A DNA stretch of 64,000 nt, from NCBI GenBank assembly GCA_052147455.1, contig JBKQKO010000124.1, positions 4,618 to 68,617 on the forward strand, in the 5' to 3' direction. The position numbers and the translations under genes were made by a program. Shown in pieces: positions 9,860-61,463 of this stretch. This DNA is from Desulfobaccales bacterium (lineage in GTDB: Bacteria > Desulfobacterota > Desulfobaccia > Desulfobaccales > 0-14-0-80-60-11). The notes beneath the pieces are model-generated. The model ran no database searches. It had not been told where the DNA came from and worked only from the letters and a program-made list of their open reading frames with translations. The stretch's first letter is position 1, and each line of letters starts with the position of its first letter.

Positions 9860-9876
9860 ACTCGAAATTCGAAACT
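9860..9876. repeat. 17-nt motif ACTCGAAATTCGAAACT (family D)
   Basis: An identical 17-mer occurs at 18513..18529. It contains the palindrome TCGAA-A-TTCGA. Confidence 0.6.
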
Positions 9877-9881
9877 TGAAA

Positions 9882-12636: not shown

Positions 12637-12727
12637 GGCCTTCCCTCAGGTCCTTTGCTGTTTTAATTCGCCCACCCCGGGGCGCGGCCGAGGGGCCGCC
12701 TGGTTATGGGGCTTAGAGTTGCCCACC

Positions 12728-13033: not shown

Positions 13034-13139
13034 GAGAATGCTCCTTATTTTCATTTTCCAGCCCCAGCCTGGGCCCGGGATCGTTTTGCCGGGGACCCGC
13101 CCTCTTGCTTTCCGGGTCTTGGCCCCCAATCCCTGGCCC

Positions 13140-14516: not shown

Positions 14517-14565
14517 GACGTTATCCTCGATTCCTTTACCAAAAAATCCGGGGCGGCCCGGCGGT

Positions 14566-16221: not shown

Positions 16222-16317
16222 GTTCCTCTCTCCATCTAAAGAAATCTGTGGTAAAAGGTCTTTCATTATTGAGGGCCCGGGCTTTCCAGGCGCAGCTTTG
16301 ATTAACTGGGCTTACCC

Positions 16318-44774: not shown

Positions 44775-45227
44775 CTATTGCCGCCGGACCTTTTCCATCG
44801 CCGCGGTAATGGCCTCCTTGTTGAGGACAAACTCCATCATCCCTACCTGTTGCTCGTAGGTTTTCGAATCCACCAACTCCTTGATGCGGTCTTCCAGGAT
44901 GTGATATACAGGGAGTCCCAACGGGACTCCGGCCAAAGGACCTGCGAAGGTGGGGTCGCCTTTGGTGACGGTTTCAGCATAGATTTCAGCGCTTTCCGCA
45001 TCGGGAGAGCCCAAAACCACCACCAGGTTTTCCGTGCCGTTGTCTTCAACGGCTTTCTTGATCGTCCCCTGATCTTCCAGATCCATGGCCCCCGCCGCAG
45101 TTCAGACAAAGCACTGGGTCAACGCCAGGACCGGTTGAGCTCCTGCGGTCCGGATGCACTCGGCAATGGCCGGGGCTGGCACCCCATCCCGTTCCCCGAT
45201 GCAAATGACTTTCTTTCCTTGTAACAT
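44775..45227 (-). CDS. grdA: glycine/sarcosine/betaine reductase complex selenoprotein A
   Basis: Translating through the TGA at 45102..45104 gives [53 protein letters not shown]...GDPTFAGPLAGVPLGLPVYH, including the canonical CxxU motif. GAGGAGG RBS before ATG 45227. The track shows only the part 3' of the UGA. Confidence 0.93.
45102..45104 (-). other. in-frame UGA (selenocysteine) codon of grdA
   Basis: Codon 42, within CFV-U-TAAG. Confidence 0.9.
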
Positions 45228-45251: not shown

Positions 45252-45599
45252 TTAGGTAGATGACAATTCCAGGGCCGCTTCCAGATAGCCCGCCACAAAT
45301 TTGTCCAACTCTTCCTGATTGACTTCTTTTCCCGACAGCCGGCCTACTTCCTGGCCGTCCCGATACAGCAGGAAGGTGGGCAAGCCCATCACCTTAAGAT
45401 CGATACACAGCCGCCGGTTTTTGCTGGCGTCCACCTTGGCCACCTTCAGCCGTGTCCCATATTTACCCGCCAGTTCCTCTACATATGGCATCAGGGCTAG
45501 GCAGGGGGCGCAGGCCGGTCCCCAAAAATCTACCAGCACCATTCCCGGCGAGGATTCGATTTCCGCAACGAAGGTCTCTTTGGTGACCTCCAGAGCCAT
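45252..45599 (-). CDS. thioredoxin
   Basis: 115 aa. Thioredoxin fold with active-site region DFWGPACAPC and ...GLPTFLLY. Confidence 0.85.
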   Translation of the reverse strand: MALEVTKETFVAEIESSPGMVLVDFWGPACAPCLALMPYVEELAGKYGTRLKVAKVDASKNRRLCIDLKVMGLPTFLLYRDGQEVGRLSGKEVNQEELDKFVAGYLEAALELSST

Positions 45600-45604
45600 A
45601 CCTT

Positions 45605-47038
45605 TTATCCTCCATTTCTTTCTAATAAGAATGACATCCCGTCGGACAGTTTGGTCATCATGGCCAAAAAGAGGCTGCCCTTGCCCAGAAACATGGCGTG
45701 GCGCAAATCTCCCCGGAGCATCCGGTTTCGGGCGTGACCCAGGAACGGCAGGGCCGAGGGGATATGCCCCTGGGTGGGGGCAAAGCCCGGCATGCCGTGG
45801 GTGTGCACGAACTGATCCAAGTCGGCGGGAGTCAGCAACTTATGCATGACGGCCAGTCCGCCAATCATGCGGTAGTTCCCCCGGGGGGTGTTGCCGCTGC
45901 CGGCCGGTTCGGTGATTTCCGGGTTATGCAACTCCGTGGCGTACTTTTCAATATCCGTAATCTTCAGGCCCACCCGAGCCAACGGCTTAAAAACCAAGGA
46001 TTCCATGATGGCCTGCTGCGAGGAAGACGCCGCCACTTCATGCTTGCCCACCACATCCAGCCTGATCCTGGGATTGACCCCGTCATCCTGGCCCACCACC
46101 ACGGCAAAGGCCCCCAGAATGTCCTCCAGGATGGGGATGGATTTGGCCAGGTGACCTCGCATCTTCATACCGAGCTTGGCCAGAGAACCGCCGCCCACCA
46201 CTACCACTTCTTTGAATACCCCGGCCTGAACCAAGCTGGCCGCCAATACCATGGTATGCACCGGGGCGCAGCAAAAGGCTTTGATATCAGCGCCGCTGCT
46301 GTTAACGCATCCGGCTTTTTCCGCCATAGCCTTGGCCAGGTTGCCGGCGCCCCGTTGGTAGCGGTCGCCCACGGCCTCTTCCCCGCAATTCATGACGAAA
46401 TCAATGGCCGCGGCGCCGGGCCCAAAAGAACTGAGCAGGTGGCGCAGGGCCAGGACTCCCGAGGCCTTGCAGGCCAGGTTTTCCAGGAGGATGGCGGCGC
46501 TCAGGTTTTCATCCTCATCGTGGCCGTTACGCAGGCAGCCCACCAGTTCGTTTTGCTCAAAAATGGGGAGAGCGCCGCCGGCAATTTCCTGTCGGAGTTG
46601 CTCCCAAGCGACTCCCGTACCCAAGCGCTCCCGGTCCTCATCCTTGAACAAGGGGTGATTCGAAAGGGCCTGCTTGACCTTGGCGGTAAAATTTTCCTCC
46701 AACCGGACCAGGTCGAACTCATCCACCACTTTCAGCAGGCCGTAGAACTCAGATTGAGGCATGATTTCGCCAAAAGGGCCGAACCGCTGCGCCCCTTCTA
46801 AAGGATGTTGAAACCAGGGCCGTTCAATTCCCCATAGATTTTCCGGGTGCAGGGCGCCGATGAAAACCTGGTGCGCCGGGTACGCCACGGCTTCCTCATA
46901 GCTCCGCAAGTGTGATTTAATGTTCTCCAGTAAACCTGGTTCCTTGGGAATTTCCCGCACCGGTTTCGATCCGTAGCGGACCAGGTCCGGAGTATGTGCC
47001 AGCACATAGGAGACTCCCTTGACTACCGGATACCCCAT
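45605..47038 (-). CDS. grdC: glycine reductase complex component C beta subunit-like
   Basis: MGYPVVKGVSYVLAHTPDLV...ERPWF...FGEIMPQSEFYGLLKVVDEFDLVRL closely resembles the clostridial GrdC N-terminus. Start at ATG 47038 with AGGAGG. The track's 571-aa ORF is an N-extension overlapping grdB. Confidence 0.85.
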   Translation of the reverse strand: MGYPVVKGVSYVLAHTPDLVRYGSKPVREIPKEPGLLENIKSHLRSYEEAVAYPAHQVFIGALHPENLWGIERPWFQHPLEGAQRFGPFGEIMPQSEFYGLLKVVDEFDLVRLEENFTAKVKQALSNHPLFKDEDRERLGTGVAWEQLRQEIAGGALPIFEQNELVGCLRNGHDEDENLSAAILLENLACKASGVLALRHLLSSFGPGAAAIDFVMNCGEEAVGDRYQRGAGNLAKAMAEKAGCVNSSGADIKAFCCAPVHTMVLAASLVQAGVFKEVVVVGGGSLAKLGMKMRGHLAKSIPILEDILGAFAVVVGQDDGVNPRIRLDVVGKHEVAASSSQQAIMESLVFKPLARVGLKITDIEKYATELHNPEITEPAGSGNTPRGNYRMIGGLAVMHKLLTPADLDQFVHTHGMPGFAPTQGHIPSALPFLGHARNRMLRGDLRHAMFLGKGSLFLAMMTKLSDGMSFLLERNGG

Positions 47039-47073: not shown

Positions 47074-48378
47074 TCAGGCGTTGAAAATCGTTGGCTGGCC
47101 AACCTGCGATTGCAGAGCGGCCAGAGATTGATCCACTAGTTTTCGCCGCACGGCTTTTTCCTGGTTGGGGCTCAGGTCGGGACTGCCCAAGGGGTAGGGT
47201 ATGGCAGCAGCCGGCAAGATCCGGTTGGCGCCCACTGCTAAGGCAATAGACGTGATGGCACAGATTTGCACCGTGGGGATTCCGGCCCGTTCCAGTTCTT
47301 TGGCGATCGTTGCCCCGCAACGAGTGCCAGTCCCTCAGGTGGAGGTCAGGATAACCGCCTGCACCCCGTCTGCAATCAAACCCCGGGCAATCTCCTGGCC
47401 AAATTTGCGGGCGTTTTCCAGGCTGGTGCCGTTGCCGGTGGTGGTGAAAAAGTACGGGTATAACCTGCCGATCTTGCCTTCGCGCTCGCAGTCCCGGAGC
47501 GCGTCCACCGGCAATACCCGATCGGGGTCTTCGTTGGCAAAGACATTGCTGTAGCCACCGTCGACGGACTGGAATTCCACTCCCGACAGGTCTTCGATGC
47601 CCTCCAGGCTGTACTTGAGAAACTTGCTGGCCCGGGCGGACTCCAGCCGGTCCGGGTTGCCCTTGGGGACGATACCGCCTTCGGTTACCAGGGCCACGGT
47701 GGCGGTACTGAGGTCGCTCACCGGGGGAGCCGGGGAGACCCTCTCAAAGGAAGGCATGGGGAGCTCCGTGCGGTAAGGCAGCCCCTGCAATTTGGCCAGG
47801 AGCAGGTCCACCGCCCGCGCCGCGCCGGTTTTCTCGGCCCAGGTGTTCTTGCGGATCCCCCGGGGCAGATAACCTTCGGCCTCGGGTATGCCTAAGGCCT
47901 CGCCCCCAGCCAATTTTAGACCCAGGACGGCCATGGCCGCAACGGCCTGGCGCATGCCGGCCGCAGAGGGACCGGTTGCCACGCAGAAGATGTCCTTCCG
48001 GTAGAGTTCTACGCCAGGGTTTTCCGGGTACATGCCGGTCACCGCGGGAACTCCCAGCCGGGTCTGCACGGCCTGGCATACGGCCCCACAGGCCGGGCCA
48101 TACCTCCCGGCATTGAAGGCCGGGCCGGCCACGACTAACTGAGGCTCAAAGGACCTGATGAGTTGCAGCACTTCTTCAGTGGCCTCCAAGATATGTTCGG
48201 CAAAGAAATTATCCCCACAGATCACCGTGGCCACCACCTGGGCTTTCTCGCCCAGGGCGGCTTGCAGGGCTATCCCCGGTCCCACCGGGTGGGCCACTGC
48301 CCGGGGAGCCACCCCGGCCTGGTCTTCTCCGCCGATCTGACCGAAAAACTGATTAAGATAATGGACTACTCTGATCAT
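47074..48378 (-). CDS. grdB: GrdB-family selenoprotein B-like (set 1)
   Basis: MIRVVHYLNQFFGQIGGEDQAG is a GrdB N-terminus. ...AVILTST-U-GTGTRCGATIAKELERAGIPTVQICAIT... reads through the TGA at 47335..47337 into track ORF 47074..47271 in the same frame. Confidence 0.9.
47308..47322 (-). promoter_or_regulatory. SECIS-like hairpin of grdB-like 1
   Basis: The minus strand reads CGTTGC-GGG-GCAACG, starting 13 nt after the UGA. Confidence 0.5.
47335..47337 (-). other. in-frame UGA (selenocysteine) codon
   Basis: Joins ORFs 47335..48378 and 47074..47271. Confidence 0.88.
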
Positions 48379-48390
48379 CCGGGCACCTCC

Positions 48391-49647
48391 TCAATACTCC
48401 CTGATGGACAGATGGGTGGCCCCCAACTGGTTGGTGGCCGTATAGATGCGTCCCAGGGCGATGGTCAGCCCGGAGTCAGGCGGCCCTGCGACCCCGGCGA
48501 TCTCCTCGCCTCCTATAACCTGCCCCACGGGAGCCAGCGTCACCAACTCGTCGTTGTTGCCGGTGGTGACCACGGCGTCGGCTTCGGGGACGCTATCCAC
48601 CAGCGACGGCTGGTCCCCGGCGGCTCCGGCAATCTCGTTGGCCAGGATGACGGTTTTAATGCCAAGTTTTTCACTTTCCCGGCAGCTAAGCATCAGGTCG
48701 GTATCCGCGTGACCACCGCCCTCTTGGGTGATGACGGCTCCCTGGGCGCCCAGTTGCCAGGCCAGCTTGGCGGCAAATTTCGCCGAGCGTTCCTTTTCCC
48801 GCAGGGTGCTATGTTCATTGGCTAGCACCACTCCCGCAAAGATCAGGTCCCGGCCATGCCGTCGAGCCAAATCCAGGACCACCGGGTTGTGCAGATGGAG
48901 ATAAGTGGGATTCTTCTGGCAGGCGATGATGTAGTTGCTGCTGACTAGGGCCCCATCCAGCACCTCATTGGGGTGGAGAAGGGTGGGCAGCAGTTCCCGG
49001 GCGTTTTCGCCATACACCAAGGTATCCCGCAACAACCCCTGGGATTGCAGGTGATAGATATATACGACCCGGGGCAGATCCTGAGCTTGGTTTTCCAGCA
49101 CGCCCAGGTCAAACACCTCAACCTGGTCAGGAACCAGGTGGCGGGTGGGTCCGGCCAGGTATACCGCGGCCTCCAGCGCCGCCTTCCGGGTGGTCCGGTC
49201 AAACTCCGCGTCCGTGGTGGCGGGATGGGGAGTGCAGAGTAGCACCACGTTGATGGTTTTAGAGAAGATGCTGTAGTCCGCTCCCGGCCCTGCCATGTCC
49301 ACTATCCCTTCCTGAATACCCTGCCTTTTGCCGGTTTGAAGCACGGCTACCCCACCCAGCACGTTGGTCTGCCCCCGGCCGGCAATCTCCATGGGGCCCA
49401 GGGCTCCGGGAAAGGGCGTAGCACCACCGGAGAGCTTAAGGCGCGGCTGCACGGCGTCCATGATATGCACAATCCTGACCGCTTCCCCAGGCCGGGCCAG
49501 CTTCACCTCCACCTCCGCAAACGAGTGGTCCCGGTTCAGGAATCCTACCAATTCCGATTGGTTGATAACCAGGGTACCCTGTTCAATTCCGGTGCCCTCT
49601 CCGAACCGGGCATCCTTGATCGTGAATTTGCGTAACTCCAGCCTCAT
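48391..49647 (-). CDS. grdE: GrdE-family (component B alpha/beta proprotein-like), set 1
   Basis: MRLELRKFTIKDARFGEGTGIEQGTLVINQSEL is a GrdE-type N-terminus. Start at ATG 49647 with GGAGAGGAG upstream. Confidence 0.85.
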   Translation of the reverse strand: MRLELRKFTIKDARFGEGTGIEQGTLVINQSELVGFLNRDHSFAEVEVKLARPGEAVRIVHIMDAVQPRLKLSGGATPFPGALGPMEIAGRGQTNVLGGVAVLQTGKRQGIQEGIVDMAGPGADYSIFSKTINVVLLCTPHPATTDAEFDRTTRKAALEAAVYLAGPTRHLVPDQVEVFDLGVLENQAQDLPRVVYIYHLQSQGLLRDTLVYGENARELLPTLLHPNEVLDGALVSSNYIIACQKNPTYLHLHNPVVLDLARRHGRDLIFAGVVLANEHSTLREKERSAKFAAKLAWQLGAQGAVITQEGGGHADTDLMLSCRESEKLGIKTVILANEIAGAAGDQPSLVDSVPEADAVVTTGNNDELVTLAPVGQVIGGEEIAGVAGPPDSGLTIALGRIYTATNQLGATHLSIREY

Positions 49648-49699
49648 AAAAGGAAACTCCTCTCCAGGCCTGGCCATCTTCCCATACTTAATGACCCGC

Positions 49700-51202
49700 T
49701 TACACCATTCCCAGCCAATGCCAATAGGTGGCGCTGAAGATTACCATAAAAATAATGGCGATAATCACCAAAGGAATACCCACCTTCATCATGTCATCAG
49801 AACTAAAGGTGTCGGTGGAGTAAGCCACCATGGCCATGGGGGTGTTCACCGGAATGATTACGGAAAACTGAATGGTGTAGTAGAAGATGAGAGTCAGGCC
49901 CCAGACGCTGAGGCCGGGAATGTTGAGGCCCTGGGCAAAACCAATAGCCGTGGGCACCAGGGCGGCAACCGCCGCGGACCGGGCGGAAAAAGCCAGGGAA
50001 AAGATGGAGAAGAACAAGCCGCCGGCTGCGATCATCAGCAGCAAGGGCCATTGGTCCACTCCCAGAGCGATGATGGTGTTCTTGGCGACCCAGGCCGCCG
50101 CCCCGCTCTTCAAAAGCCAGATTCCCAGGGAAATGGCAGCGCCGAATAGCATCAGCGTTCCCCAATTCACTTTACCCACCAACTGTTTCCAATTGGCCAC
50201 CCTGAGACCCGGGAAAAATATCGCCGCTACTGCCAGAAGCGCTACAGTGCTGGGGTCTAGCCGGTGCAAGACATTTCCGGTGCCCCACATGAAGATGGTA
50301 GCCAGCATGATGATCAATAGCTTAACTTCTCCGCTAGTAATAGGCCCCAATTTGGCGCTATGCTCCTGAACGACGGACACCCCGCCAGCCAATTCATCCT
50401 TGCCCACCGGGAACAAATAGATAACCAGCAAATAGAGGACCACCCCCATCGTCAGGGCAAAGGGCATGCCATAGATGGCCCATTGGAGCCAGGTGATCTG
50501 GTGTTGGGTAGCCTGGGAAATGTACATGGCGGTTTGAATGGGTGGGGCGCCTGAGGTCAGAATGCCCATCCCGGCTATCCCGGTGCCAAAGGCGACCAGC
50601 AGTAACATCCCTTTGCTCAGGTTGCTTTTTAAGTCCAACCCGAAGGCTTTAATAATCCCTACAGATATCGCAGTCATCAAGGCGGCGTTGGCTGCCTGGG
50701 CCGGAATAAAGACCGTCAAGATAAAGGCCATCAACAGGACTCCCAAGAGCACCCGTTTCGGCTTGGCCCCCATGCGGCTCAAGATGAACAGGCCGATTCT
50801 CTGTCCCAACCCGGTTATCTCGATGGCGGCTGCCAGAAACAGGGCGCAAACCACGAGCACCCAGGCCGGCGAACTGAAACCGGAGAGGGCCATGCCCAGG
50901 GCTGCCTCGGTTCCCACCAGTTTACCGGGATTGGCGGCTTCCGGGGAGAGGGCCACCAAGAGCGTAAAGGAGGCGATCAGAAAAAACGAACTGGCCGCAT
51001 AGCCCACTGCTTCCGAGACCCAGATGACCAGCATGAACAGCATCACGCAGAGCAGGGCATGTCCCACCGGCGTCAAGGAGGACGGAAAAGGGATGAAGTA
51101 AAGGGCTATCAGGACGAGGAAGGCAAGGATGATCCCCACCGCACGCCGCATCTTCCCAACCGCGGTTGTAGCGCCGGAGATCTTGGCATCAGACTTTCCC
51201 AC
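49700..51202 (-). CDS. DASS/SLC13-type (ArsB/NhaD-superfamily) anion permease
   Basis: 500-aa polytopic membrane protein. Family assignment is from overall pattern only. Confidence 0.6.
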   Translation of the reverse strand: MGKSDAKISGATTAVGKMRRAVGIILAFLVLIALYFIPFPSSLTPVGHALLCVMLFMLVIWVSEAVGYAASSFFLIASFTLLVALSPEAANPGKLVGTEAALGMALSGFSSPAWVLVVCALFLAAAIEITGLGQRIGLFILSRMGAKPKRVLLGVLLMAFILTVFIPAQAANAALMTAISVGIIKAFGLDLKSNLSKGMLLLVAFGTGIAGMGILTSGAPPIQTAMYISQATQHQITWLQWAIYGMPFALTMGVVLYLLVIYLFPVGKDELAGGVSVVQEHSAKLGPITSGEVKLLIIMLATIFMWGTGNVLHRLDPSTVALLAVAAIFFPGLRVANWKQLVGKVNWGTLMLFGAAISLGIWLLKSGAAAWVAKNTIIALGVDQWPLLLMIAAGGLFFSIFSLAFSARSAAVAALVPTAIGFAQGLNIPGLSVWGLTLIFYYTIQFSVIIPVNTPMAMVAYSTDTFSSDDMMKVGIPLVIIAIIFMVIFSATYWHWLGMV

Positions 51203-51239
51203 TGCTCAGCCCTCCTTCTTTAGAAATACCAGGTTTTAC

Positions 51240-52682
51240 TCATCGGACTGTCCGAATAGTATTAGACTGCCCCACACTATCTTCTTTCTTGCGGGTGATT
51301 AAACTGACAACAATTAAAACGATCGCACTGACCATAAGTCCCGGATACAGCGAAGAGATGCCCTTCGGATAAAGGGAGTGCCAGATGAAGTCAGTTAACG
51401 GCCCCAGTATTGCCGCCGCAATGCCACCTGCCGGGGTAACCAGGCGTTTACAGAACATGGCGCCCAGAAACGGGAAGAGGGCAGTGCAACCCCGCAATCC
51501 CATGGATAGGAAGGCGAAGCCCAGGAGCAGCTTGCCAAAACTGCCCCTGACGCAGACTACGGCGAGAACACAAAGACAGAGTATCAATGTCCGCTGCACC
51601 CACAGAGCCCTTTTGTCATTGGTTTCCTTGGCAATATACGGTTTGTAGATATCACGGGTAAGCATAGTCGAAATGCCGAGGTTTAAACCGGCTATGGTTC
51701 CGATCACCGAAATAAACAGGGTGGCTAAAATTACCCCTGCGAGCAAGGGTGGCAGGTAATGCAGAATGAAAACCGGTAAAACCTGGGCAGATGCAGTTGT
51801 CAACCCGGGGAAGCCAGCAAGATGAGCCCTCATATACAATCCGACCAGAACGCCACAGGCGCCAAACGGGGGGATAAGAAATGCTGAGAGCAAGGCGCCC
51901 AGGCGAGCCTTGCCGAAACTCCTGGTTGCTGCAACCGCTTGAATGTAGGTCTGGGTGCAGATAACTCCCACCACCAGCGAGAATCCATCTGCTAAGTCCC
52001 GTGAAACTCCACGGCCAAACAGGGAAAACCAGGGGAAAGGGTTTGGAAAAGCGTGATACATCGCCCTGATGCCGCCGAATTGGTAAAGAGACTCGCCAGC
52101 GGCGGCTATCATTGCTGCATATAACAGGAGTATTTTGACTGTGCCGACCATACCGGTGCCTTGAATCCCGCCAGCCATAACATATGCAAGAGTTATCAAT
52201 ATAGTGATAATCACCGCAACCGTAGGATTGAGATTAACTACTGAAGTTAGCAGCGCCACCGCTGCCAGACCATTGGCGATGACATTAAAAAATATGCCAA
52301 AGCTCGTGAAGATACTGGAAATGGGTCCTATTGCCGAACCGTAAGTCCCGACCAGATACTCGGGGATGGTGATTATCTTGCTTGAATAAATGGGCTTGAG
52401 CATAAAAGTCCCCAAAGCCAGGAAACCGATCCCTGCTCCGATACAGAACCACCAGGCGTCCAGGCCGTAAAGAAACGCCAATTGGGCGGTACCGATAGTA
52501 GCGTTACCACCCACCATGGTTCCCATTATAGTCCCTGCAACAACTGCCGCCCCCCCTTTACGCGAGCTGCCCGCAAAATCTCTTTCGTCTTTAACCCGGG
52601 TCCCGGCATAGAGGCCAAAACCAACAATTACCAATAACGTGATTATCATGCCAATAATATGAGCTGGGGTAATTAATATCAA
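51240..52682 (-). CDS. sodium:solute symporter (SSS) family transporter
   Basis: 480 aa. N-terminal pattern ...GLYAGTRVKDERDFAGSSRKGGAAVVAGTIMGTMVGGNATIG is typical of the SSF. Confidence 0.75.
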   Translation of the reverse strand: MILITPAHIIGMIITLLVIVGFGLYAGTRVKDERDFAGSSRKGGAAVVAGTIMGTMVGGNATIGTAQLAFLYGLDAWWFCIGAGIGFLALGTFMLKPIYSSKIITIPEYLVGTYGSAIGPISSIFTSFGIFFNVIANGLAAVALLTSVVNLNPTVAVIITILITLAYVMAGGIQGTGMVGTVKILLLYAAMIAAAGESLYQFGGIRAMYHAFPNPFPWFSLFGRGVSRDLADGFSLVVGVICTQTYIQAVAATRSFGKARLGALLSAFLIPPFGACGVLVGLYMRAHLAGFPGLTTASAQVLPVFILHYLPPLLAGVILATLFISVIGTIAGLNLGISTMLTRDIYKPYIAKETNDKRALWVQRTLILCLCVLAVVCVRGSFGKLLLGFAFLSMGLRGCTALFPFLGAMFCKRLVTPAGGIAAAILGPLTDFIWHSLYPKGISSLYPGLMVSAIVLIVVSLITRKKEDSVGQSNTIRTVR

Positions 52683-52768
52683 AACAGTCGCCTCTCAAAA
52701 TTCTGATTAAGATTGACTCTTCTTATGTTCCTTCCAGTATCAAGCAATACTTACCACTCGCTAACGCA

Positions 52769-54082
52769 TCACATTGCCTCCGGTTCGAACAGGGTGGGCC
52801 CGTCGACCTTGGTCTGCAGGGCTTTGACGATGGCCCTGGCGAATTTGATTCTCCAGGCCCTCTCGTCTTTGGCAGAGAGGGCCGGGGTGCCGCAGGGACA
52901 GCTGAAACGATTTCCCCGGAGGACGCGGTTGGCGCCGACCTTGAGCGCCACCGCGGTCAAGCTAGTGACAGTCACTGTGGGCAGGCCCGCTCTTTCCAAC
53001 TCTTTTCCCATCGTAGCGCCGCTACGAGTTCCCGAACCTCAGGTGGCAACCAGCAAAGCCGCACCCACCTTCTGAGCCAGCAGGTCCGCGGCGATCTCCC
53101 TGGCGTGCTGGGCCATCTGGCTTAATATGCCATGATTCCCGCAGGTCACGTAATATGATTCCAAAAGCTCCCCGATCTCGCCGCGCCGGACGAGTTCCCG
53201 CAGAACGTCCACTGGGACCATCCGGTTGGGATTGGCGAGAGCGTGCGCAGCATCGTAGCCGCCGTGGATCACCTCGTATTCACCGGACTTCAGTGAATCT
53301 ATCCCTGCGATGCTATACTTGAACCACTTTGAGGCGCGCACCCATTCCAGCTTGTCAGGGTTGCCGCTGGGGACCAGTCCGGACTCGGTCACCACGGCCA
53401 GGCGCATCCGCGATGGATCGGGCACGGGAGGGGGCGGGGTAACTTTGTCATAATTTGGCAGGGGGACCTCTGTGGTGAAAGGACGCCCATTTATCCGGGC
53501 CAAGAGGAGATCGAGAGCCCTTGAAGAGGCAGATCCTTCCACTAACGCATTGATCCGCTGGCCGCGAGGAAGATATCCCTCGGCAGCAGCCGGCCCCAGG
53601 GGTTCTCCATGCCCAAGCTTCAAGGCCAGACGAGCCATGGTGGCAAGAGCTTCTTTCATGCCGACGGCCGAGGCGCTTGTCGGCACGATTAGTAAATTCC
53701 GGTAGAGCTCAACAGCGGCATTTTCCTTGAACATCCCGGTGACCGTGGGCTTGCCGAGATAATTTACCACGTCGGCACAAACCCGGCCGCACGCCAGGCC
53801 GTACCGCCCGGCATTGAAGGCAGGCCCTGCAATAACCACGTCGGGGGCAAATCCTGCGATCAGCTTGAGCACGGCGGCAGCAGTCTGCTCCATGTGGTCA
53901 GCAAAAAGGCCGTCTCCGCAGATCACCGTACCCACGACCTCGGCTTCCTTGCCCAGGGCCTGCTGGAGGGCACGGCCAGGACCGGTTACTCCGGGCATTG
54001 CCTGGGGAGGAAAGTCCGCTTTGTCTTCGCCGCCAATCCCGCCAAAAAACTGATTCAGATAATGAACAATGCGCATGGTCAA
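52769..54082 (-). CDS. GrdB-family selenoprotein B-like (set 2, divergent Sec motif)
   Basis: MTMRIVHYLNQFFGGIGGEDKAD...ALLVAT-U-GSGTRSGATMGKELERAGLPTV... reads through the TGA at 53039..53041 into track ORF 52769..53011 in frame. Start overlaps the grdE-like 2 stop (ATGA). Confidence 0.82.
53012..53026 (-). promoter_or_regulatory. SECIS-like hairpin of grdB-like 2
   Basis: The minus strand reads CGTAGC-GGC-GCTACG, starting 13 nt after the UGA. Same geometry as set 1. Confidence 0.5.
53039..53041 (-). other. in-frame UGA (selenocysteine) codon
   Basis: Joins ORFs 53039..54082 and 52769..53011. Confidence 0.8.
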
Positions 54083-55350
54083 TACTCCTGTGCCGTAACG
54101 CCGCGCTGGTTGGTCTCGATGGTCGCGGCATAGAGTTCCTGAAGCGGCAGATCGAGTTCCCCCTGGGCTGGCTCGCCCCGGTGAGCCAGGTGGGTTCCCC
54201 CAATCACCAGTGCGACGGGCGGGAGTTGCAGCCGCCTATCGATCCCCCCGCTGCTGGCAATGGCCACAGCTTCGGGCACGAAGTCGACTAAGGGAATGTC
54301 CTTGCCTTCGGGCCCTCCGTACTCGTGGACGACAATCCCGGTGGGAATCCCCGCTTCTTCGAGGGCCTGGACGGTCAGCATGAAATCTATATGGGTATTA
54401 CCGGTCGCTTCGTAGGTGCACAGCGCCCCGTTCGCCCCGAGCATGTTCGCCAACTTTGCCACAAACTGGGCCGAACGTTCCTTCAGAAATTCGGTCTCAT
54501 GGTGGCCCCGGGAAATGATAACCCCCCCGAAGTTGAGCTCCTTGCCATGCTTCTGATATAGGGCGACGAGGGAGGGGTGCCAGGTGTGCCTAAAAGTAGG
54601 CGTCCGGGTGCCGATCTTGTAATTTGAGCCAACGACGGCTCCGTCCAGCATTTCGTTAGGATGCAGGATGGTGGGCAGGCAGCCGCTGAACTCGTGGCCA
54701 TAAACATGGGTCTGGAGCATTGGTCCCTGAGCGCGAACCTGATGAACCCAGACAATCCGCGGCAGGCCCACAGTCTCTTCGCCGAGTCCGAAAACTTCCA
54801 TTTTGGGGGGAGTGAGTTCCCGAGTCACCCCTGCCAAATAGGCGGCCACGCGAAGCGATGCCCGTCGCAGGGCATCATCGTACTCCACATTCGAGGAGGC
54901 CTCTCCCGGTACAAATTCAAGCAACAGGTTGACCCGATCGGAGCAACCACTATAAACCGCGCCAGGTCCGGACATCTCGATGATGCCTTCTTCAAAGGCA
55001 TGGACTCCGCTTGCCGGGAAAGGGAAGTCCCCCACCTCTACTACCGTGAAACCTTCGAGGCGGTGAGTACGGCCGGAACCGCAGGTGCGCGGCGGACCAT
55101 TGAATCCCGGAAACGCGCCGGACGGACCACTCACTTTAAATAGCGGCTCGATTGCGTCCAGTACTCGGACCACCCGGACAGAATCCCCCGGGAATACCAG
55201 ATGGAGCCGAACATCTTGGATTCGCCCGTCCTGGAGGATCAGGTTTCGTATCGCCTTCGGCTCGATGGTAAGAACGCCATCCCGATATTCTGTCCGGTCT
55301 CCGAATCGGGCGGACCGGACCAGGAAAGAACCTAATTCCAAGTGTGCCAT
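54079..55350 (-). CDS. GrdE-family protein, set 2
   Basis: MAHLELGSFLVRSARFGDRTEYRDGVLTIEPKAI plus shared blocks with set 1 (HPNEMLDGAVVGSNY, ERSAQFVAKLA). Its ATG overlaps the stop of the upstream Mo enzyme (TAATG). Confidence 0.78.
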   Translation of the reverse strand: MAHLELGSFLVRSARFGDRTEYRDGVLTIEPKAIRNLILQDGRIQDVRLHLVFPGDSVRVVRVLDAIEPLFKVSGPSGAFPGFNGPPRTCGSGRTHRLEGFTVVEVGDFPFPASGVHAFEEGIIEMSGPGAVYSGCSDRVNLLLEFVPGEASSNVEYDDALRRASLRVAAYLAGVTRELTPPKMEVFGLGEETVGLPRIVWVHQVRAQGPMLQTHVYGHEFSGCLPTILHPNEMLDGAVVGSNYKIGTRTPTFRHTWHPSLVALYQKHGKELNFGGVIISRGHHETEFLKERSAQFVAKLANMLGANGALCTYEATGNTHIDFMLTVQALEEAGIPTGIVVHEYGGPEGKDIPLVDFVPEAVAIASSGGIDRRLQLPPVALVIGGTHLAHRGEPAQGELDLPLQELYAATIETNQRGVTAQEY

Positions 55351-57641
55351 TATTGTGCACCTCCGTGTTGCGAGACTTCACCGCATAGGTCTTTTGGGAT
55401 TTCCTCTGGCTTGACGAGATAGATGCGACACAAATTAAAACGAAGAGACCAGGTGCCCATTTCTGCTCCGCAAACATCATCTTCATCTTCGGTCAATACA
55501 TTTATATTGGATAACCAGACCCCAAAAAGGGAAGGTTCAGATTCCGGCATCTCCGGATACCACCAGTCAAAGTCGGCGTGGACCACGCGGGGATCTATGC
55601 CTGCAAAAATCTTACATTTCTGCATTACCCGGCCACGCCGTGTCTCAATCCAAACCCACTGGCCGTCAGAGATCCCAAGTCTCCGGCAGGTTTCCGGATG
55701 CACTTCTACTACTGGGAAAGGATACTGTTTCCGGATGACGGATACCTGGCGCCAGTCGGTATGCATATACTCTATCCGGCGAGCTCCGTTGATCATTATC
55801 AGGGGGAACTCTTTGGACAACTCCGGCTGACTAATAGGCGTGATGGGTTCTTCCTGATATTGCGGTAACGGATCGTAACCGAGCTTTTTGAGCAAGGTAG
55901 AATATAATTCTACTTTCTTGGTCGGGGTGGCGAATCCGATCTTCTCGTATTGTTGGTACTGAGGTGGATTAAGGATCTGCTTAACCCTGTCCCGGGCAAA
56001 TTTTTCAAACTTGAGACCAAGAGCCTGAAAACGGTAATTCAGCATCTCTTCCGAGCTCTCCCAGGTCCAGTGTTCGCCCTGTCCCAATCGAATTCCCAGA
56101 CCTCGCCAAAACCCATACTCGTCACGGCGGTCGTATTCTCCGGGTAAGACAGCAGGCATAACCGCCGGGCTAGCCGTCAAGGTTCGGGCCAGGCCCAAGT
56201 AGGAATAGGCCTGTGGCTTTTCCAACCAGCTGGCAGCCGGCAAAACATAGTCAGCGAGAGCCCCGCTAGGCGTTTTAAAAGTGTCCATTACCACAAATAA
56301 ATCAAGTTCCTTCAAGGCATCATAGACCCTACGCGTATTAGCATGGGATACCATGGGATTGGAGCCCACACTGAACAGCGCCCTGATCGGATAAGGTTGG
56401 CTGGTCAAGATGGCCCGATAGAGGCTGGGGGCGTGCCCCTGGCCTAAATACCAAACCGGCGGTTCGGCCCGGCTTCCCCAGGTACGATAGGTCAGCTCTT
56501 CCAGTTCAGTCTGCAAGGGCCAGCCATGAAACTTGTACCGCTCCGTTCCGATCTGTTTTGCTTTTTGGGTGGCAGGGAGCAGGTCTGTCAGCTCCATCTC
56601 GCGGTCGGATAGGTAAAACGGATGGGGCCCTGGGAGCTCCTCTCCACCCTGCACATCAATATTGCCAGTCAAGGCCGCCAAGATCCATCTGGCATGAATT
56701 GCCGAAACAGCATTGGCCTGCTGTTCTACACCCATGCCTTCCACAAAAGCCGCCGGCTTCGTCATGGCATACAGACGTGCTGCATCCCGAATGAGCTGAG
56801 CCGGGACCCAGGTGACCTTTTCAGCTTCTTCCAGGTTGAATTGTTCAACTCTTGCCTTGAGTTCGTCAAAACCGTGGCACCACCGCGTAACAAAGTCATG
56901 GTCATAAAGATTCTCCTTAATGATGACGCGAATCATGGCCATCAGGAGAAAGGCATCGGTCCCGGGACGCAACTGCAGCCATAAGTCGGCTTCGGCTGAG
57001 GTCTCGGTTCTCCGGGGGTCAATCGCTATGAGCTTGGCACCTTGTTGGATTGCCGTCTTGCTGATCTCATATACGATTGGGCGGCTCACAAATGAGTTGC
57101 ATCCCAGCAGAACAATGCAACGGGTAGATGGCGTGATACTGAACGCCGGGTACCAACCTATGATCGCCCGGGCTACATTGACCCGGGGCCCCATACAAAT
57201 CGGCGATGGCCCGACGTAGTTGGGGCTGCCCCACAAGTTCATGAACCGGGTACCATACTCAAACTGGGCCCAGTTGTCTCCGCTAAGCAAGCCGACGGCC
57301 TCGGGCTGGTATTGCTTCCCAATTACCGACAAGCGCTCGGCAATCTCATCTAAAGCCTGCTCCCAAGAAACGGTCTCCCAACGTCCCGCACCTCTTGGTC
57401 CAGACCTTTTTAGGGGAAACTTGAGACGGTCTGGGTGATAAAGCCATTCCACCGCCGCAGCCCGGCGATAACACTTGACCCTTTGAGCCCCGGAGCACCT
57501 TTCCCCTAAAGAGTGATCCAAAGTTAAACGCAACAGACGCCGGTCCTTGACATGAGCCAGAATATGACAACGCCCTTTGCACCACTGGCAGATCGCGGGT
57601 CGTTTCTCTTCCATGGGTCCTATTGCTAATGGCCTTGCCAA
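55350..57641 (-). CDS. cytoplasmic molybdopterin (Mo/W-bisPGD, MopB-superfamily) oxidoreductase
   Basis: 763 aa. N-terminal CQWCKGRCH...C [4Fe-4S] motif, no twin-arginine signal. MopB blocks present (LIAIDPRRTETS, GSNPMVSH; C-terminal barrel VEVHPETCRRLGISDGQWVWIETRRG). Confidence 0.85.
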   Translation of the reverse strand: MARPLAIGPMEEKRPAICQWCKGRCHILAHVKDRRLLRLTLDHSLGERCSGAQRVKCYRRAAAVEWLYHPDRLKFPLKRSGPRGAGRWETVSWEQALDEIAERLSVIGKQYQPEAVGLLSGDNWAQFEYGTRFMNLWGSPNYVGPSPICMGPRVNVARAIIGWYPAFSITPSTRCIVLLGCNSFVSRPIVYEISKTAIQQGAKLIAIDPRRTETSAEADLWLQLRPGTDAFLLMAMIRVIIKENLYDHDFVTRWCHGFDELKARVEQFNLEEAEKVTWVPAQLIRDAARLYAMTKPAAFVEGMGVEQQANAVSAIHARWILAALTGNIDVQGGEELPGPHPFYLSDREMELTDLLPATQKAKQIGTERYKFHGWPLQTELEELTYRTWGSRAEPPVWYLGQGHAPSLYRAILTSQPYPIRALFSVGSNPMVSHANTRRVYDALKELDLFVVMDTFKTPSGALADYVLPAASWLEKPQAYSYLGLARTLTASPAVMPAVLPGEYDRRDEYGFWRGLGIRLGQGEHWTWESSEEMLNYRFQALGLKFEKFARDRVKQILNPPQYQQYEKIGFATPTKKVELYSTLLKKLGYDPLPQYQEEPITPISQPELSKEFPLIMINGARRIEYMHTDWRQVSVIRKQYPFPVVEVHPETCRRLGISDGQWVWIETRRGRVMQKCKIFAGIDPRVVHADFDWWYPEMPESEPSLFGVWLSNINVLTEDEDDVCGAEMGTWSLRFNLCRIYLVKPEEIPKDLCGEVSQHGGAQ

Positions 57642-57721
57642 TGGCCCGTAAGAAGATGAATCAAATGGTAAGGCCGTATGAGCTCGAAAAGTTAGGATGC
57701 TCCTTCACTTCCCAATTTATT

Positions 57722-59332
57722 TTAGTGAGCGGGAAAGGTCCGGAATTTGGCGGTACCATCACGTTCAACCTGTGCCACCAGCCCAAGCTCCCATTCTATG
57801 TACTCTCGTTTTGCCTGTTCTGGAGCATCCGGGTGCATATAAGGCATATACCACGTGTCATCCGGCTCGCTTAGCGCGTGCTCCATACCCTTCGTCGTCG
57901 GAAGCCCAGCGTTAATCCAAGCCGTAGTACCGCCATCTAAGACCAGGACATCGGGCGCAAATTTTATATCCTTTAAATCTCTGGCGGCGAGGTGAGCTAA
58001 AATGCCATCTTCAGATGTTAGTATAAGTGTTTTAAGGTGCTGGACTTTTGACAAGTCTATTCCCAATCGGGAACGTATTCCCCACCAGCCCCCTGGAATA
58101 TGTTTTTCTTTATAATATCCACTGGAAGCTACGTCGATTATCACTGTTTCTTTATCAGAGTTCTTCAGCAGCTTCGCAAGCTCCTCGGCTGTTAGAGTAT
58201 TGGCCTTCTCCAAGCCAGGTACGCGGGATCTATAAGGACCCTGAATCAAAGGCAAGCCGGTGATCCCATTTTCCAGCACTGAACAATCTGTCCAGCCCAT
58301 CTGAATTAACCAGGAGGCAGTCATGGTGGCACGGACCTCGGTATCGTCCAGTAATACCAGGCGAGCGTTGAAAACGCTGATATATTCATCAGTTGCCTGA
58401 ATAAGCTGCCCGCCCTGAACATTACGGGAACCTTTCAGATGCCCGGCTGCGAATTCATCCGGAAGCCGCACATCGATTACATACAGAGTCTTGTCGCTGC
58501 TCTCCCTCATCCACTTTTTCAAAGTGTCGTAAGCTATCTTTCTGACGCCGAACCGTTCGGCTACCCTGGCGGCGCCTTCCTTGGCTTTGGCAAGTCCTGC
58601 GAGTGACGGCGCCGGAGCTATTCGGGTTTGCCCGTAATCGAGTTCGAACCCGCTTAGCTGCCAGCCCATGGTACCATTTTCTAACGCGGCCACTGGATTC
58701 GGGATACCTGCGTTGACCAGCGATTGTGCCCCGATGATGCTCCGCGTGCGTCCGGCGCAATGGACTACGATCAGGGTGGCTGGATCGGTCACGGCGTCGT
58801 GTACCCGATAAACCAGATCGGCGCCCGGGGCGTTGGTACTTCCCGGGATGGTCATAAGGTGATATTCACTCGTTGGCCGGCAATCTAGAATGAATTGTTT
58901 TTCATGGTTAGCAACCTTCTGGTGCTCTTCTTGAGGAGTTATGAAAGGGGTATGGTATTTTTCGGCAATCCACTCGCCAAAGGCCTTGCTATAAGCACCA
59001 ACGCCGGAGAAAAGCTCAAATCCGGCATCACGCCAGCCCGAAATTCCTCCTTGGAGGATCGATACATTGATGTAACCCAGTTCGTGAAGACGCATGGCCG
59101 CTCTTTCATCCAGGCGCCATACATCCGGCGGACCCTCACTGATGAGCACGATTGGGGTCGCCAGTCGCGGCACCAGGTCGCTGATCATGATTTCGAGCTG
59201 ACTCAACGGAACACAGGAGGAAAGCAGAAGATGTTCCCTTGAAAAAGGGTTGCGTTCCCTCATGTCCAACAGGGTGATCTCCATATCGCTCTTGAGAAGG
59301 TCCTTAAGCTGGTGTGCTGTAATGTATTTCAT
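57722..59332 (-). CDS. multi-domain rhodanese-like sulfurtransferase
   Basis: About 536 aa from ATG 59332. Repeated rhodanese-type units. One active-site loop VHCAGRTRS (CRxGxR-type). Confidence 0.75.
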   Translation of the reverse strand: MKYITAHQLKDLLKSDMEITLLDMRERNPFSREHLLLSSCVPLSQLEIMISDLVPRLATPIVLISEGPPDVWRLDERAAMRLHELGYINVSILQGGISGWRDAGFELFSGVGAYSKAFGEWIAEKYHTPFITPQEEHQKVANHEKQFILDCRPTSEYHLMTIPGSTNAPGADLVYRVHDAVTDPATLIVVHCAGRTRSIIGAQSLVNAGIPNPVAALENGTMGWQLSGFELDYGQTRIAPAPSLAGLAKAKEGAARVAERFGVRKIAYDTLKKWMRESSDKTLYVIDVRLPDEFAAGHLKGSRNVQGGQLIQATDEYISVFNARLVLLDDTEVRATMTASWLIQMGWTDCSVLENGITGLPLIQGPYRSRVPGLEKANTLTAEELAKLLKNSDKETVIIDVASSGYYKEKHIPGGWWGIRSRLGIDLSKVQHLKTLILTSEDGILAHLAARDLKDIKFAPDVLVLDGGTTAWINAGLPTTKGMEHALSEPDDTWYMPYMHPDAPEQAKREYIEWELGLVAQVERDGTAKFRTFPAH

Positions 59333-59572
59333 CTCTAAAATCCTTTCATACCATTCGAAGTGGGGAAGTCCGGGTGAGCCAAAGCGTGATTGAGAGACCC
59401 TGCTTGTGAGTGGGAGAGCCAAACCAGGAGCGGGTCGGCTCCAAGGCACCACAACACTCCACGGCGGTGTGACCTCCAGGTCTCATGGATACGCACACTC
59501 GCCGAGAGGAGTATCGGCGCATCCTGAACCACCATAAATCATGATCGCAGATTTCAAGTAACAGGCCTATGC

Positions 59573-60622
59573 TTAGTGAGGATATCTACCTTTGCTAAGT
59601 CCAACGTTTACCAGTGCCCTTAGATTGTCAGGGGACACCCCTGGGGGAACGGTGCAATCCGCAGAGAGGAAATAGCCCCCTCCCTTCGCAGCCTTGGCAA
59701 TGCACGAAGCTGCTTCGGCTTCGACCTGTTCAGGCGTGCCCTGGAGAAGCGTATCTACAGCCTTGACATTGCCCATGAGGGTGATTTTGGATCCAAAGTT
59801 CTTCTTAAGATCTGCCAAATCCACCTTGTCCACATGCAGGATATCGACGTTTTCGTCTGTGACCAGATCGAAACGGTCATTCCAGTTGCCACAGGTATGG
59901 AACATGATCTTGACATCCTTATGGCCTTTGATATCCGAGAACATGCGCTTGGTATAGGGATGTGAGAATTCCTTATAGTGGTCGTACCTGATGCAATCTT
60001 TATTAGCTACGGGATTCGACAAACAAATGATGTCGGCTCCGGCATCCGTAAGGGCTTTGCTATAGGCTGTACAGGGACCGATCACGGTCTCCAGCAACTC
60101 TTTGACAAAACCAGGATCCAGCATGATGTCGAGGTATAGCTGGCTGGAACCCCTTAACATACACGCCGTTCTGAAAGGGGGGGAAACCCATGCACATATC
60201 GGTATGTCCTCCCCGAGTTTTGCTTTGAGCCCGCGGACGACATTGAGAAGGAAAGGCATCCTGCCATCTTTTTGCGGATCGATTTTGGTTTTGAGCTTCT
60301 TAATGTCGCCCTTGTCCTTCAGCAGGGGCTGAGAGATCCATGGAGCATCGTCTTCGGGCAATTCCACGTGGGCTCCCAAGGCCTCATCCACCGCGGGAGT
60401 ACACCAGATATCGAAAGCGGCATCGATATGAAAATCTTTGATAAGTCTGGCCTGGGCATCGACGTATTTATTTCCATCGGCCCAAATGTCGGCAAAGGTA
60501 TACCCTGAATAACGGATGGAGATTTCCCTGGAAGCAATTACAATGGGCACCCGGTCAGCTTCACGGTGAGCCATGGCCTCAAACACCCGTTCCCGAGAGC
60601 TCATCTGCGGTGTCTTACTCAT
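59573..60622 (-). CDS. uroporphyrinogen-decarboxylase-family (MtaA/MtbA-like) corrinoid methyltransferase
   Basis: 349 aa with a URO-D-family pattern (ERVFEAMAHREADRVP...FHTCGN...). Adjacent to a corrinoid protein gene. Confidence 0.75.
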   Translation of the reverse strand: MSKTPQMSSRERVFEAMAHREADRVPIVIASREISIRYSGYTFADIWADGNKYVDAQARLIKDFHIDAAFDIWCTPAVDEALGAHVELPEDDAPWISQPLLKDKGDIKKLKTKIDPQKDGRMPFLLNVVRGLKAKLGEDIPICAWVSPPFRTACMLRGSSQLYLDIMLDPGFVKELLETVIGPCTAYSKALTDAGADIICLSNPVANKDCIRYDHYKEFSHPYTKRMFSDIKGHKDVKIMFHTCGNWNDRFDLVTDENVDILHVDKVDLADLKKNFGSKITLMGNVKAVDTLLQGTPEQVEAEAASCIAKAAKGGGYFLSADCTVPPGVSPDNLRALVNVGLSKGRYPH

Positions 60623-60653
60623 CAGCTTTCTCCTTGATCGCGAGGACCACGAA

Positions 60654-61289: not shown

Positions 61290-61463
61290 ATTGATGCCCC
61301 CCACTTATCTTAATCTTAACGATGTCAATCAATACCAGCCAAGTAAACCTGGGTCTTATTATTCAATATTTAATAGCACCTTTAGGTATTACCCGAACCA
61401 GATGATTAGATGCTTTCAATCATGGTTAGGTGCTGTCATCATATTCAACATTTATTATCATAG

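Follow-up and report, generated by a model that had tools for sequence, protein, structure and literature searches.

Grd-type selenoenzymes conserve energy by converting compounds of the form X-CH2-COOH to acetyl-phosphate and, to our knowledge, only four substrates have been described for them: glycine, sarcosine and betaine, joined in 2023 by fluoroacetate. Here, we describe two modules of this kind encoded in a stretch of 64,000 nucleotides from a Desulfobaccales bacterium (GenBank assembly GCA_052147455.1, contig JBKQKO010000124.1, positions 4,618 to 68,617 of the forward strand; hereafter the window, numbered from its first letter). Each module consists of a GrdE-like protein (E1 in set 1, E2 in set 2) and a GrdB-like selenoprotein (B1 and B2, respectively). 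Both E1 and E2 carry a tyrosine at the position of the cysteine from which GrdE generates its pyruvoyl group. The loss of this cysteine is not new in itself, but both modules lie outside the characterized reductases.

The closest described systems are the glycine and sarcosine reductases (GrdE/GrdB and GrdG/GrdF), with which the modules share the families PF09338 and PF07355 and the position of the selenocysteine (Sec, U). The identity of E1 to these proteins is ∼46–48%, and set 1 is likewise accompanied by GrdA, GrdC and TrxA. The modules differ from them in the replacement of Cys242 by Tyr, in an altered U-xx-C-xx-C motif, in the loss from B1 of the Asp of the GGYD motif and in the linkage to an anion transporter. 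In the betaine reductases (GrdI/GrdH, Eubacterium/Peptoclostridium acidaminophilum type) the E subunit is also not a proprotein and has Phe or Tyr at the Cys242 position; its partner is a selenoprotein of the GrdB family, the product is fed to GrdA and protein C, and no Schiff base is needed. GrdH, however, keeps the motifs U-GTC-TRC and IHAG[FY]DP, unlike B1 and B2. A further parallel is provided by FarE/FarB of Cloacibacillus porcorum MFA1, in which FarE reportedly lacks both processing cysteines and FarB the C-xx-C near the Sec (PMC10838667), a motif that is partly lost in B1 and completely lost in B2. The likeness would extend to the use of a non-amine X-CH2-COO− substrate from which X leaves directly. 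FarE/FarB differs in its host phylum and in its farACEB operon with a radical-SAM protein; this comparison was made by hidden Markov model (HMM) and by description. PrdA/PrdB is only distantly homologous (E ∼1e-10 with the PrdA model) and also has a selenoprotein partner, but PrdA is a pyruvoyl proprotein processed at Cys421, with a length of ∼590 residues by HMM. Since neither GrdI nor FarE is a proprotein or has the processing cysteines (PMC10838667), a missing cysteine is not unusual and has precedents in betaine and fluoroacetate reduction. An aromatic residue in its place is thus usual for the non-processed branches of PF09338 that were sampled and is not peculiar to the window. A literature search found no paper remarking on its absence from the GrdE of Desulfobacterota.

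In C. difficile GrdE, mass spectrometry maps the pyruvoyl-bearing peptide to residues 242–266 (PMC9908766), and residue 242 is the processing residue reported for C. sticklandii GrdE (Bednarski et al., 2001). Our reference was the GrdE of Tissierella creatinophila (428 residues), which is encoded in a classical operon (trxB-trxA-grdE-grdA-grdB-grdC-grdD) together with a GrdB that scores 735.6 bits on TIGR01917 (cutoff 602.2). Its cysteine is also residue 242, and the alignment column that contains it is therefore the true processing site. According to the initial annotation, Tyr replaces the processing cysteine in both GrdE-like proteins of the window. The motifs that it quoted are present exactly in E1 (HPNEVLDGALVSSN-Y249-IIACQKN, with the Tyr249 codon TAC at 48933-48931) and in E2 (HPNEMLDGAVVGSN-Y244-KIGTRTP, with the Tyr244 codon TAC at 54621-54619). 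In three independent MAFFT alignments (120, 227 and 99 homologs), Tyr249 of E1 and Tyr244 of E2 share a column with the Cys of SGN-C-VSACDKN proteins and the HPNE...N block is free of gaps. Among the 227 homologs this column contains Tyr in 175, Cys in 46, Phe in four and His in two; Tyr is kept across both clades, in 22/22 aligned E1-clade proteins and in 61 of the 65 from the E2 clade. The multiple alignment, which had been put forward as a check, thus places no Cys, Ser or Thr in the processing column of either protein, and E1 and E2 are therefore unable to form a pyruvoyl group in the canonical way, as had been proposed.

Since TAC is one base away from the Cys codon TGC, the tyrosine could be imagined to be a sequencing or assembly artefact, or the genes to be decaying. 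The reading frames are full length, however, and Tyr is invariant across phyla. The same residue and gene order recur in the nearest relatives among the matches listed (87–93% identity), which are Desulfobaccales or `Deltaproteobacteria' metagenome-assembled genomes (MAGs) from groundwater and soil together with metagenome contigs, at least four of them independent. The Sec codons and selenocysteine insertion sequence (SECIS)-like hairpins are conserved as well. In view of this conservation an explanation by pseudogenes or sequencing error was rejected, its probability being negligible. Another explanation, for which we know of no precedent and which we consider very improbable, is that E1 is still a proprotein that is cut at a different residue (Cys253 of IIA-C-QKN, or Ser246/247) and still forms a carbonyl cofactor. 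Canonical GrdE has two conserved cysteines; Cys253 corresponds to the second and is kept in 16/17 E1-clade proteins, and in an AlphaFold model the site is predicted to lie in a loop after a β-strand. The mapped cleavage, however, is at Cys242 only (PMC9908766), one member of the E1 clade has Ser at position 253, and both E2 (NY-KIGTRTP) and GrdI lack a Cys there. A search of PDB sequences with E1 returned no match at E ≤ 0.01, and no match by fold was found.

The initial annotation went on to propose that the modules bind their substrates by different chemistry. The part of this proposal that concerns the pyruvoyl group agrees with the alignments. According to Andreesen's model, however, as summarized in PMC9908766, the substrate-binding carbonyl of glycine reductase may be located on GrdB and not on GrdE, so that the loss of the GrdE pyruvoyl group alone does not prove a different substrate-binding chemistry.

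Family assignment was based on the B subunits because the NCBIfam models for E subunits do not discriminate (one GrdI protein scores 361 bits on the GrdG model, against 365 for E1). With B1 and B2 scored at full length, Sec being read through and U read as C, both are under the cutoffs of the GrdB model TIGR01917 (602.2 bits; B1 565.7, B2 438.8), the GrdF model NF040794 (800; 597 and 463) and the GrdH model NF040795 (775; 496.7 and 385.1). Both pass the generic models TIGR01918 (65; 589 and 457) and PF07355 (22; 520 and 429), of which TIGR01918 is the only NCBIfam protein-B model passed. E1 and E2 are over the PF09338 cutoff (22.2 bits; Table 1) and under those of GrdG (NF040793, 780; E1 365, E2 254) and FarE (NF053623, 675; 191.1 and 109.9), and no match to a GrdE or GrdI NCBIfam model was obtained. 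With the PrdA/PrdB models TIGR04480 (cutoff 700) and TIGR04483 (cutoff 300), E1 and E2 score ∼40 bits and B1 and B2 30.6–84.5 bits. The GrdB and GrdF motifs of Nobu et al. (2022), ...AHGGxD[QTAP]...RV[IL]PxD...TxGNxTxV and IHGGYDR...TTGTGT, respectively, are matched neither by B1 (VDGGYSN, TTGNGTSL) nor by B2 (IHGGYDA, TCGNHGIL); a clostridial control GrdB matches the GrdB motif. In a neighbour-joining tree of 116 family members (100 bootstraps), E1 and E2 belong to two different clades, both outside the GrdI clade (bootstrap 100) and the Cys-type clade (77); the wider E1 clade has a bootstrap of 82, and the E2 core clade one of 100 (87 in its wider form). By the tests applied, all of them on sequence, neither E1/B1 nor E2/B2 is GrdE/B, GrdG/F, GrdI/H or FarE. 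The earlier claim of a distinct family, and not a glycine, sarcosine or betaine reductase, is thus supported by HMM cutoffs, motifs and phylogeny, and also by partner co-variation and gene context as described below. One step of its reasoning fails: GrdI itself has an aromatic residue at the site, and therefore a missing cysteine does not exclude an enzyme of the betaine type.

The partner selenoproteins co-vary with the type of E subunit. Cys-type partners keep U-G-[TS]-C-T-R-C in 35/35 cases, as do all but one of the GrdI-clade partners, and xH[GA]G[YF]D is kept in all partners of both types. In B1 the Sec context is TST-U-GTGTRCG, with Gly in place of the first Cys of the canonical motif U-xx-C-xx-C, and VDGGYSN replaces xHGGYD with loss of the Asp. 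The same pattern is found throughout the E1-clade partners, which read U-G-T-G-T-R-C in 16/16 and have lost the Asp in motifs of the VHGGY[NS] type. The Sec context of B2 (VAT-U-GSGTRSG) lacks both Cys of C-xx-C, and all five E2-clade partners examined share U-G-S-G-T-R-S and TCGNHG while keeping GGYD-A. An in-frame TGA with a SECIS-like hairpin is present in B1, B2 and GrdA, and the in-frame TGA is kept in all of the partners compared. The hairpins of B1 (CGUUGC-GGG-GCAACG) and B2 (CGUAGC-GGC-GCUACG) both begin 15 nt downstream of the UGA. The His of xHGGY, which is kept in the other E1-clade partners and in every other GrdB-family protein sampled, is Asp in the window (VDGGYSN, ∼47560-47540) and in locus L012 and Asn in locus L011.

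The wider family was sampled through 80 genome loci with GrdE-family alignments, among the matches listed, in which E1-clade genomes are few. Cys occupies the site in a single clade of these loci, the other clades having Tyr, Phe, Ser, His, Val or a deleted loop; the Cys-processed, pyruvoyl-bearing type accordingly appears, on sequence, to be a single clade, and at least five further clades lack the Cys, two of which are represented in the window. One clade of ∼441-residue GrdE-like proteins reads SGS-F-MPxSSKW or GAS-Y-MCCSSKW at the site. Its identity as GrdI was established from the partners: five neighbouring selenoproteins exceed the betaine_GrdH cutoff of 775 bits with scores of 803–850, namely those of Sedimentibacter saalensis (L080, 850 bits), Anaerosalibacter (L081, 847), Clostridium sp. 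(L088, 830), a Clostridiales MAG (L070, 805) and Thermosyntropha lipolytica (L085, 803). The GrdI proteins encoded beside these five GrdH-positive partners have Phe or Tyr at the Cys242 position. At least three more Cys-less clades of GrdE-like proteins occur in Syntrophobacteraceae, Thermodesulfobacteriota, Binatia, Acidobacteria and Chloroflexi, with the site deleted or Pro (L042, L048, L075), Ser in a shortened loop (L066, L068, L078, L079, L082), Ser or Val (L058) or His (L069). Their partners have altered Sec contexts (U-GTS-TRC, U-GSS-TRC), and in L066 the E-like and B-like parts are apparently fused in one long reading frame.

The aromatic residue of GrdI raises the question of whether E1 or E2, or both, could be divergent betaine-type (GrdI/GrdH) enzymes or reductases of another N-methylated glycine, acting on betaine or dimethylglycine, which are unable to form a Schiff base. 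Several features of set 2 and its surroundings are compatible with this: B2 keeps the GGYD Asp, an SSS symporter gene adjoins B2, and a corrinoid protein and an MtaA-like methyltransferase are encoded 5–7 kb upstream. On the GrdH model, however, the scores of B1 (497 bits) and B2 (385 bits) fall short of the cutoff of 775 and are lower than their own GrdB and GrdF scores, and the GrdH signature IHAG[FY]DP is absent. The GrdI clade, with its bootstrap of 100, excludes both E1 and E2; E2–B2 is missing from the syntenic locus L012 although the SSS gene remains there, and E2-type pairs elsewhere lack GrdA and GrdC. We therefore regard a betaine-type enzyme as unlikely.

The E1 clade is linked to anion transporters. 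By tblastn, 11 GrdE genes of the Tyr type, every one from the E1 core clade, have a DASS, CitMHS or MatC_N transporter gene no more than 5 kb away, compared with 0/42 Cys-type and 0/15 Phe-type (GrdI) genes; the absence of DASS or CitMHS from the 15 GrdI loci is a further difference from GrdI/GrdH. Loci L004/5, L017, L090/91, L095 and L097-99 are linked beyond this count, and a transporter of the ion-transporter superfamily adjoins the E/B pair at every inspected E1-core locus except one. The DASS form stands next to E1 in the window and at loci L011, L012 and L017, which are from Desulfobaccales MAGs. Related MAGs, Desulfomonile tiedjei and the second module present in Desulfovibrio sp. 6_1_46AFAA have it as well (DASS–E1 synteny at L001-3, L006, L010-13, L017, L095 and L097-99). 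The CitMHS/MatC_N variant takes its place in Desulfovibrio piger (D. piger) ATCC 29098 and Desulfovibrio sp. 86 as well as in gut contigs. Metagenome DASS homologs of at least 60% identity with a visible flank all adjoin Tyr-type GrdE/B. Those of ∼50% identity adjoin TRAP transporters and GD_AH (SuyB-like) and Ldh_2 (ComC-like) proteins, and no SauCD or SauS was found next to these metagenome homologs. At L101, L102 and L105 a GD_AH-family dehydratase without the N-terminal domain is encoded beside the DASS homolog, in contexts that are compatible with C3 sulfonate or dicarboxylate metabolism. The named hosts of the E1 clade, among the matches listed, belong to two phyla and reduce sulfate or sulfite (Desulfobaccales, Desulfomonile, Desulfovibrio, Desulfotomaculum, Desulfosporosinus and Desulfovirgula). 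This link to anion importers points in a concrete way towards a new substrate, and among the hosts D. piger ATCC 29098, Desulfovibrio sp. 86 and Desulfomonile tiedjei can be cultivated. The second module of Desulfovibrio sp. 6_1_46AFAA (L003, JH114300.1) has the order sigma54 activator-GrdA-DASS-GrdE(Tyr)-GrdB without GrdC, GrdD or Trx and is located apart from the main Grd cluster (HMPREF1022_01459-01465), as a second substrate-specific protein B that shares protein C would look.

We favour, with moderate confidence, the reading that E1 and E2 are intact and conserved members of pyruvoyl-less branches of protein B, that they represent two separate clades of non-processed modules, and that the substrate of E1/B1 is probably an anionic compound of the form X-CH2-COO− that is imported. 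By analogy with betaine and fluoroacetate reductases, no Schiff base would be formed; instead, the selenolate of the partner (Sec348 of B1, or the Sec of B2) would attack the α-carbon of X-CH2-COO− directly and expel X. In set 1 the resulting carboxymethyl-selenoether would be handed to GrdA (Sec42) and then converted to acetyl-phosphate by protein C, with electrons supplied by thioredoxin, and the DASS importer, E1, B1, GrdC, TrxA and GrdA would form a self-contained unit. Its substrate would probably be an imported anion and not glycine, sarcosine or betaine.

Several changes in set 1 would fit a substrate without a cationic nitrogen. In E1, Arg217 replaces His, His323 replaces Asn, Gln254 replaces Asp and Met73 replaces Lys, changes that may hint, by their electrostatics, at an anionic substrate. 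The gain of Arg217 and His323, the loss of Asp254, the loss of the GGYD Asp from B1 and the dicarboxylate/sulfate type of the importers would all be in keeping with it. Sulfoacetate is isosteric with malonate and yields sulfite, which all E1-clade hosts can respire, and its conversion to sulfite and acetyl-phosphate would be the most sensible single guess for set 1. If this were true, a single substrate would provide sulfate and sulfite reducers with ATP and, in addition, with an electron acceptor for respiration. SauI, a member of the DASS family, has been proposed as the sulfoacetate importer in sulfate and sulfite reducers (PMC10413351); a literature search found no paper connecting sulfoacetate with glycine reductase. 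A bolder version, that E1/B1 with its DASS or CitMHS importer is a Sec-dependent reductase of an anionic non-amine carboxymethyl compound, most plausibly sulfoacetate, and that E2/B2 is a second new selenoenzyme family which, in bacteria of soil and groundwater, operates independently of GrdA and GrdC, is at present speculative and is given a low probability.

A number of observations weigh against the reading that we favour. The substrate is drawn from gene context alone, and the window DASS protein is at most a candidate ortholog of SauI; the exceptional E1-core locus, that of Desulfovirgula (L014), has no anion transporter. When the B subunits were compared, the E1 clade proved to have gained no conserved Arg or Lys and to have a Ser-to-Glu change, which is not what a simple anion-binding model predicts. 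No GrdD is encoded in the window, so that the acetyl-phosphate step is not demonstrably complete. Cys253, as kept in E1, leaves room for processing at another residue. Finally, the E1 clade includes published orthologs of DsvG11_1441; if the strain G11 protein is itself of the Tyr type, its labelling data would favour glycine, and a pyruvoyl-independent glycine reductase would become the best explanation.

This last point bears on a further alternative, namely that the E1/B1 clade is a true glycine reductase without a GrdE pyruvoyl group, in which glycine is bound by a carbonyl or other group on GrdB and the transporter serves acetate or another ion. Pipelines and papers name all of these proteins `glycine reductase', and every source annotates those of the E1/B1 type in this way. 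The gene cluster to which the reductive glycine pathway has been attributed has DsvG11_1441 as its GrdE, and Sanchez-Andrea et al. (2020), in a supplementary table of orthologs, place D. piger DESPIG_02567 and KL86DES1_20987 of Desulfovibrio sp. 86 in the same row as DsvG11_1441 (PMC7547702); the D. piger (L015) and Desulfovibrio sp. 86 (L090) proteins of that row are of the Tyr type. The G11 cluster is ∼8-fold upregulated in autotrophy, labelling indicates flux `via GR', and the E1-clade hosts Desulfomonile and Desulfosporosinus are listed as having the glycine reductase (GR) route (PMC7547702). A carbonyl of GrdB's own was also proposed in earlier work, as described in PMC9908766. Against this, B1 is under the TIGR01917 cutoff, does not match the GrdB motif and lacks both the first Cys after the Sec and the GGYD Asp, which every GrdB, GrdF and GrdH sampled keeps, and a conserved anion transporter would be unexplained for a substrate that is zwitterionic or made internally.

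Comparison within the Desulfovibrionaceae also argues against a glycine reductase. In D. piger and Desulfovibrio sp. 86 the cluster has the order sigma54-GrdA-GrdE-GrdB-CitMHS-TrxB-GrdC-GrdD-TrxA-GrdA, whereas the Desulfovibrionaceae MAG L040 combines the TrxB-GrdC-GrdD-TrxA-GrdA backbone of these clusters with a GrdE of the Cys type and a GrdB that matches the motif, and has no transporter. The alternation of a Cys-type pair with a Tyr-type pair plus CitMHS on one backbone looks like module swapping. The locus numbering Ddes_0112-0118 of D. desulfuricans ATCC 27774 leaves no room for a transporter (PMC7547702), and neither D. desulfuricans nor Bilophila appears in the Tyr-type clusters that were expanded, which returned D. 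piger, D. porci, Desulfovibrio sp. 86 and the second module of 6_1_46AFAA. We infer that organisms with functional evidence for glycine carry the canonical Cys type, that the Tyr-type pair with its transporter is an alternative substrate module and that the ortholog table lumps the two. On balance, E1/B1 as a glycine reductase seems doubtful to us. Because the published reductive-glycine ortholog set mixes in Tyr-type proteins, pathway inference in Desulfobacterota may be over-called; if the anionic-substrate reading is true, part of the Desulfobacterota `glycine reductase' counted for this pathway is something else. Presence calls for `GR' in Desulfobacterota may mix two enzyme types.

Set 2 differs in its contexts. 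E2–B2-type pairs stand alone in one MAG each of Burkholderiales and Rokubacteria and in a further contig: none of GrdA, GrdC, GrdD and Trx is encoded within 9 kb, the neighbours vary and the Sec codon is kept. E2–B2 is a distinct and widespread pair of a Sec-containing GrdB-like subunit and a GrdE-like partner. Since B2 keeps the GGYD Asp of all sampled amine-substrate enzymes, there is a hint that its substrate has a cationic nitrogen. In L012, a Desulfobaccales MAG of 87% identity, the order is MoOx-SSS-DASS-E1-B1, where MoOx is the molybdopterin oxidoreductase of Table 1, and E2–B2 is wholly missing between MoOx and SSS, which constitutes an insertion/deletion polymorphism.

The genes of the run that contains both sets are listed in Table 1. 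The probable true start of E1 is Met11 (ATG 49647-49645), as homologs begin at MxLEL. GrdA scores 139 bits on NF040748 (cutoff 130), the match being on its C-terminal part.

Table 1. Positions and features of the genes in the run containing sets 1 and 2
Feature	Position	Strand	Details
Gene run, 5'->3': rhodanese protein, MoOx, E2, B2, SSS, DASS, E1, B1, GrdC, TrxA, GrdA	59452-44775	minus	
Molybdopterin oxidoreductase (MoOx)	55350..57641	minus	PF00384, PF01568; no visible Tat (twin-arginine translocation) signal
E2, GrdE-like, set 2	54079..55350	minus	423 aa; PF09338 352 bits
B2, GrdB-like selenoprotein, set 2	52769..54082	minus	Probable start ATG 54076; in-frame TGA 53041-53039
SSS-family sodium:solute symporter	51240..52682	minus	Between B2 and DASS gene; TIGR00813, PF00474
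DASS-family (Na+/sulfate-dicarboxylate type) anion symporter	49700..51202	minus	Immediately upstream of E1; TIGR00785 210 bits, PF00939 239 bits
E1, GrdE-like, set 1	48391..49677	minus	428 aa by listed open reading frame; PF09338 488 bits
B1, GrdB-like selenoprotein, set 1	47074..48378	minus	434 aa; in-frame TGA (Sec348) at 47337-47335
GrdC, component C beta subunit	45605..47038	minus	NF040746 671 bits vs cutoff 450
TrxA, thioredoxin, clostridial Grd-type	45252..45599	minus	NF047697 117 bits; PF00085
GrdA, selenoprotein A	44775..45227	minus	CFV-U-TAAG; in-frame TGA 45104-45102; read-through translation

GrdA, GrdC and TrxA are encoded alongside set 1, and tblastn gave no match for GrdD or TrxB in the 64-kb window. 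Several related loci (L010-L013, L017, L007/8, L027, L042, L048) likewise have no GrdD (component C alpha, which bears the acetyl-thioester Cys) in their 10-kb flanks, and in Desulfomonile tiedjei, D. piger and Desulfovibrio sp. 86 it adjoins GrdC. In clusters of the window type, either GrdD is encoded elsewhere or GrdC is used alone. The SSS gene adjoins the DASS gene also in L011, L012, L095 and L096.

The stop codon of MoOx overlaps the start of E2 (TAATG), so that E2–B2 is tightly packed behind it. The best NCBIfam matches of MoOx, Fdh-alpha (293 bits) and PhsA (271 bits), are both far under cutoff. Its upstream position is kept in the related MAGs L011, L012 and L095, one of which lacks E2–B2. 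Directly upstream of E2 (55350-59452, minus strand), MoOx is accompanied by a 576-residue protein with four rhodanese domains, an arrangement that is also kept in L011, L012 and L095; this pairing suggests sulfur chemistry. Just upstream of the rhodanese gene (59573-62192, minus strand) are genes for a URO-D/MtaA-like methyltransferase, a B12-binding corrinoid protein and a GntR/FCD regulator, which together resemble part of a system for corrinoid-dependent demethylation; a substrate methyltransferase of the MttB type was not seen in the window.

Elsewhere in the window, four Oxidored_nitro (nitrogenase component 1-type) genes and a radical-SAM/NifB-like gene at 8494-16266 (minus strand) constitute a nif-like or nitrogenase-like cluster. 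Between ∼34000 and ∼46000 the G+C content falls from ∼0.60 to 0.48–0.53. Fragments of a C-5 DNA methylase and of an IS1-like transposase lie in this stretch, followed by a Liv-type ABC transporter immediately downstream of GrdA, and the stretch may have been horizontally acquired.

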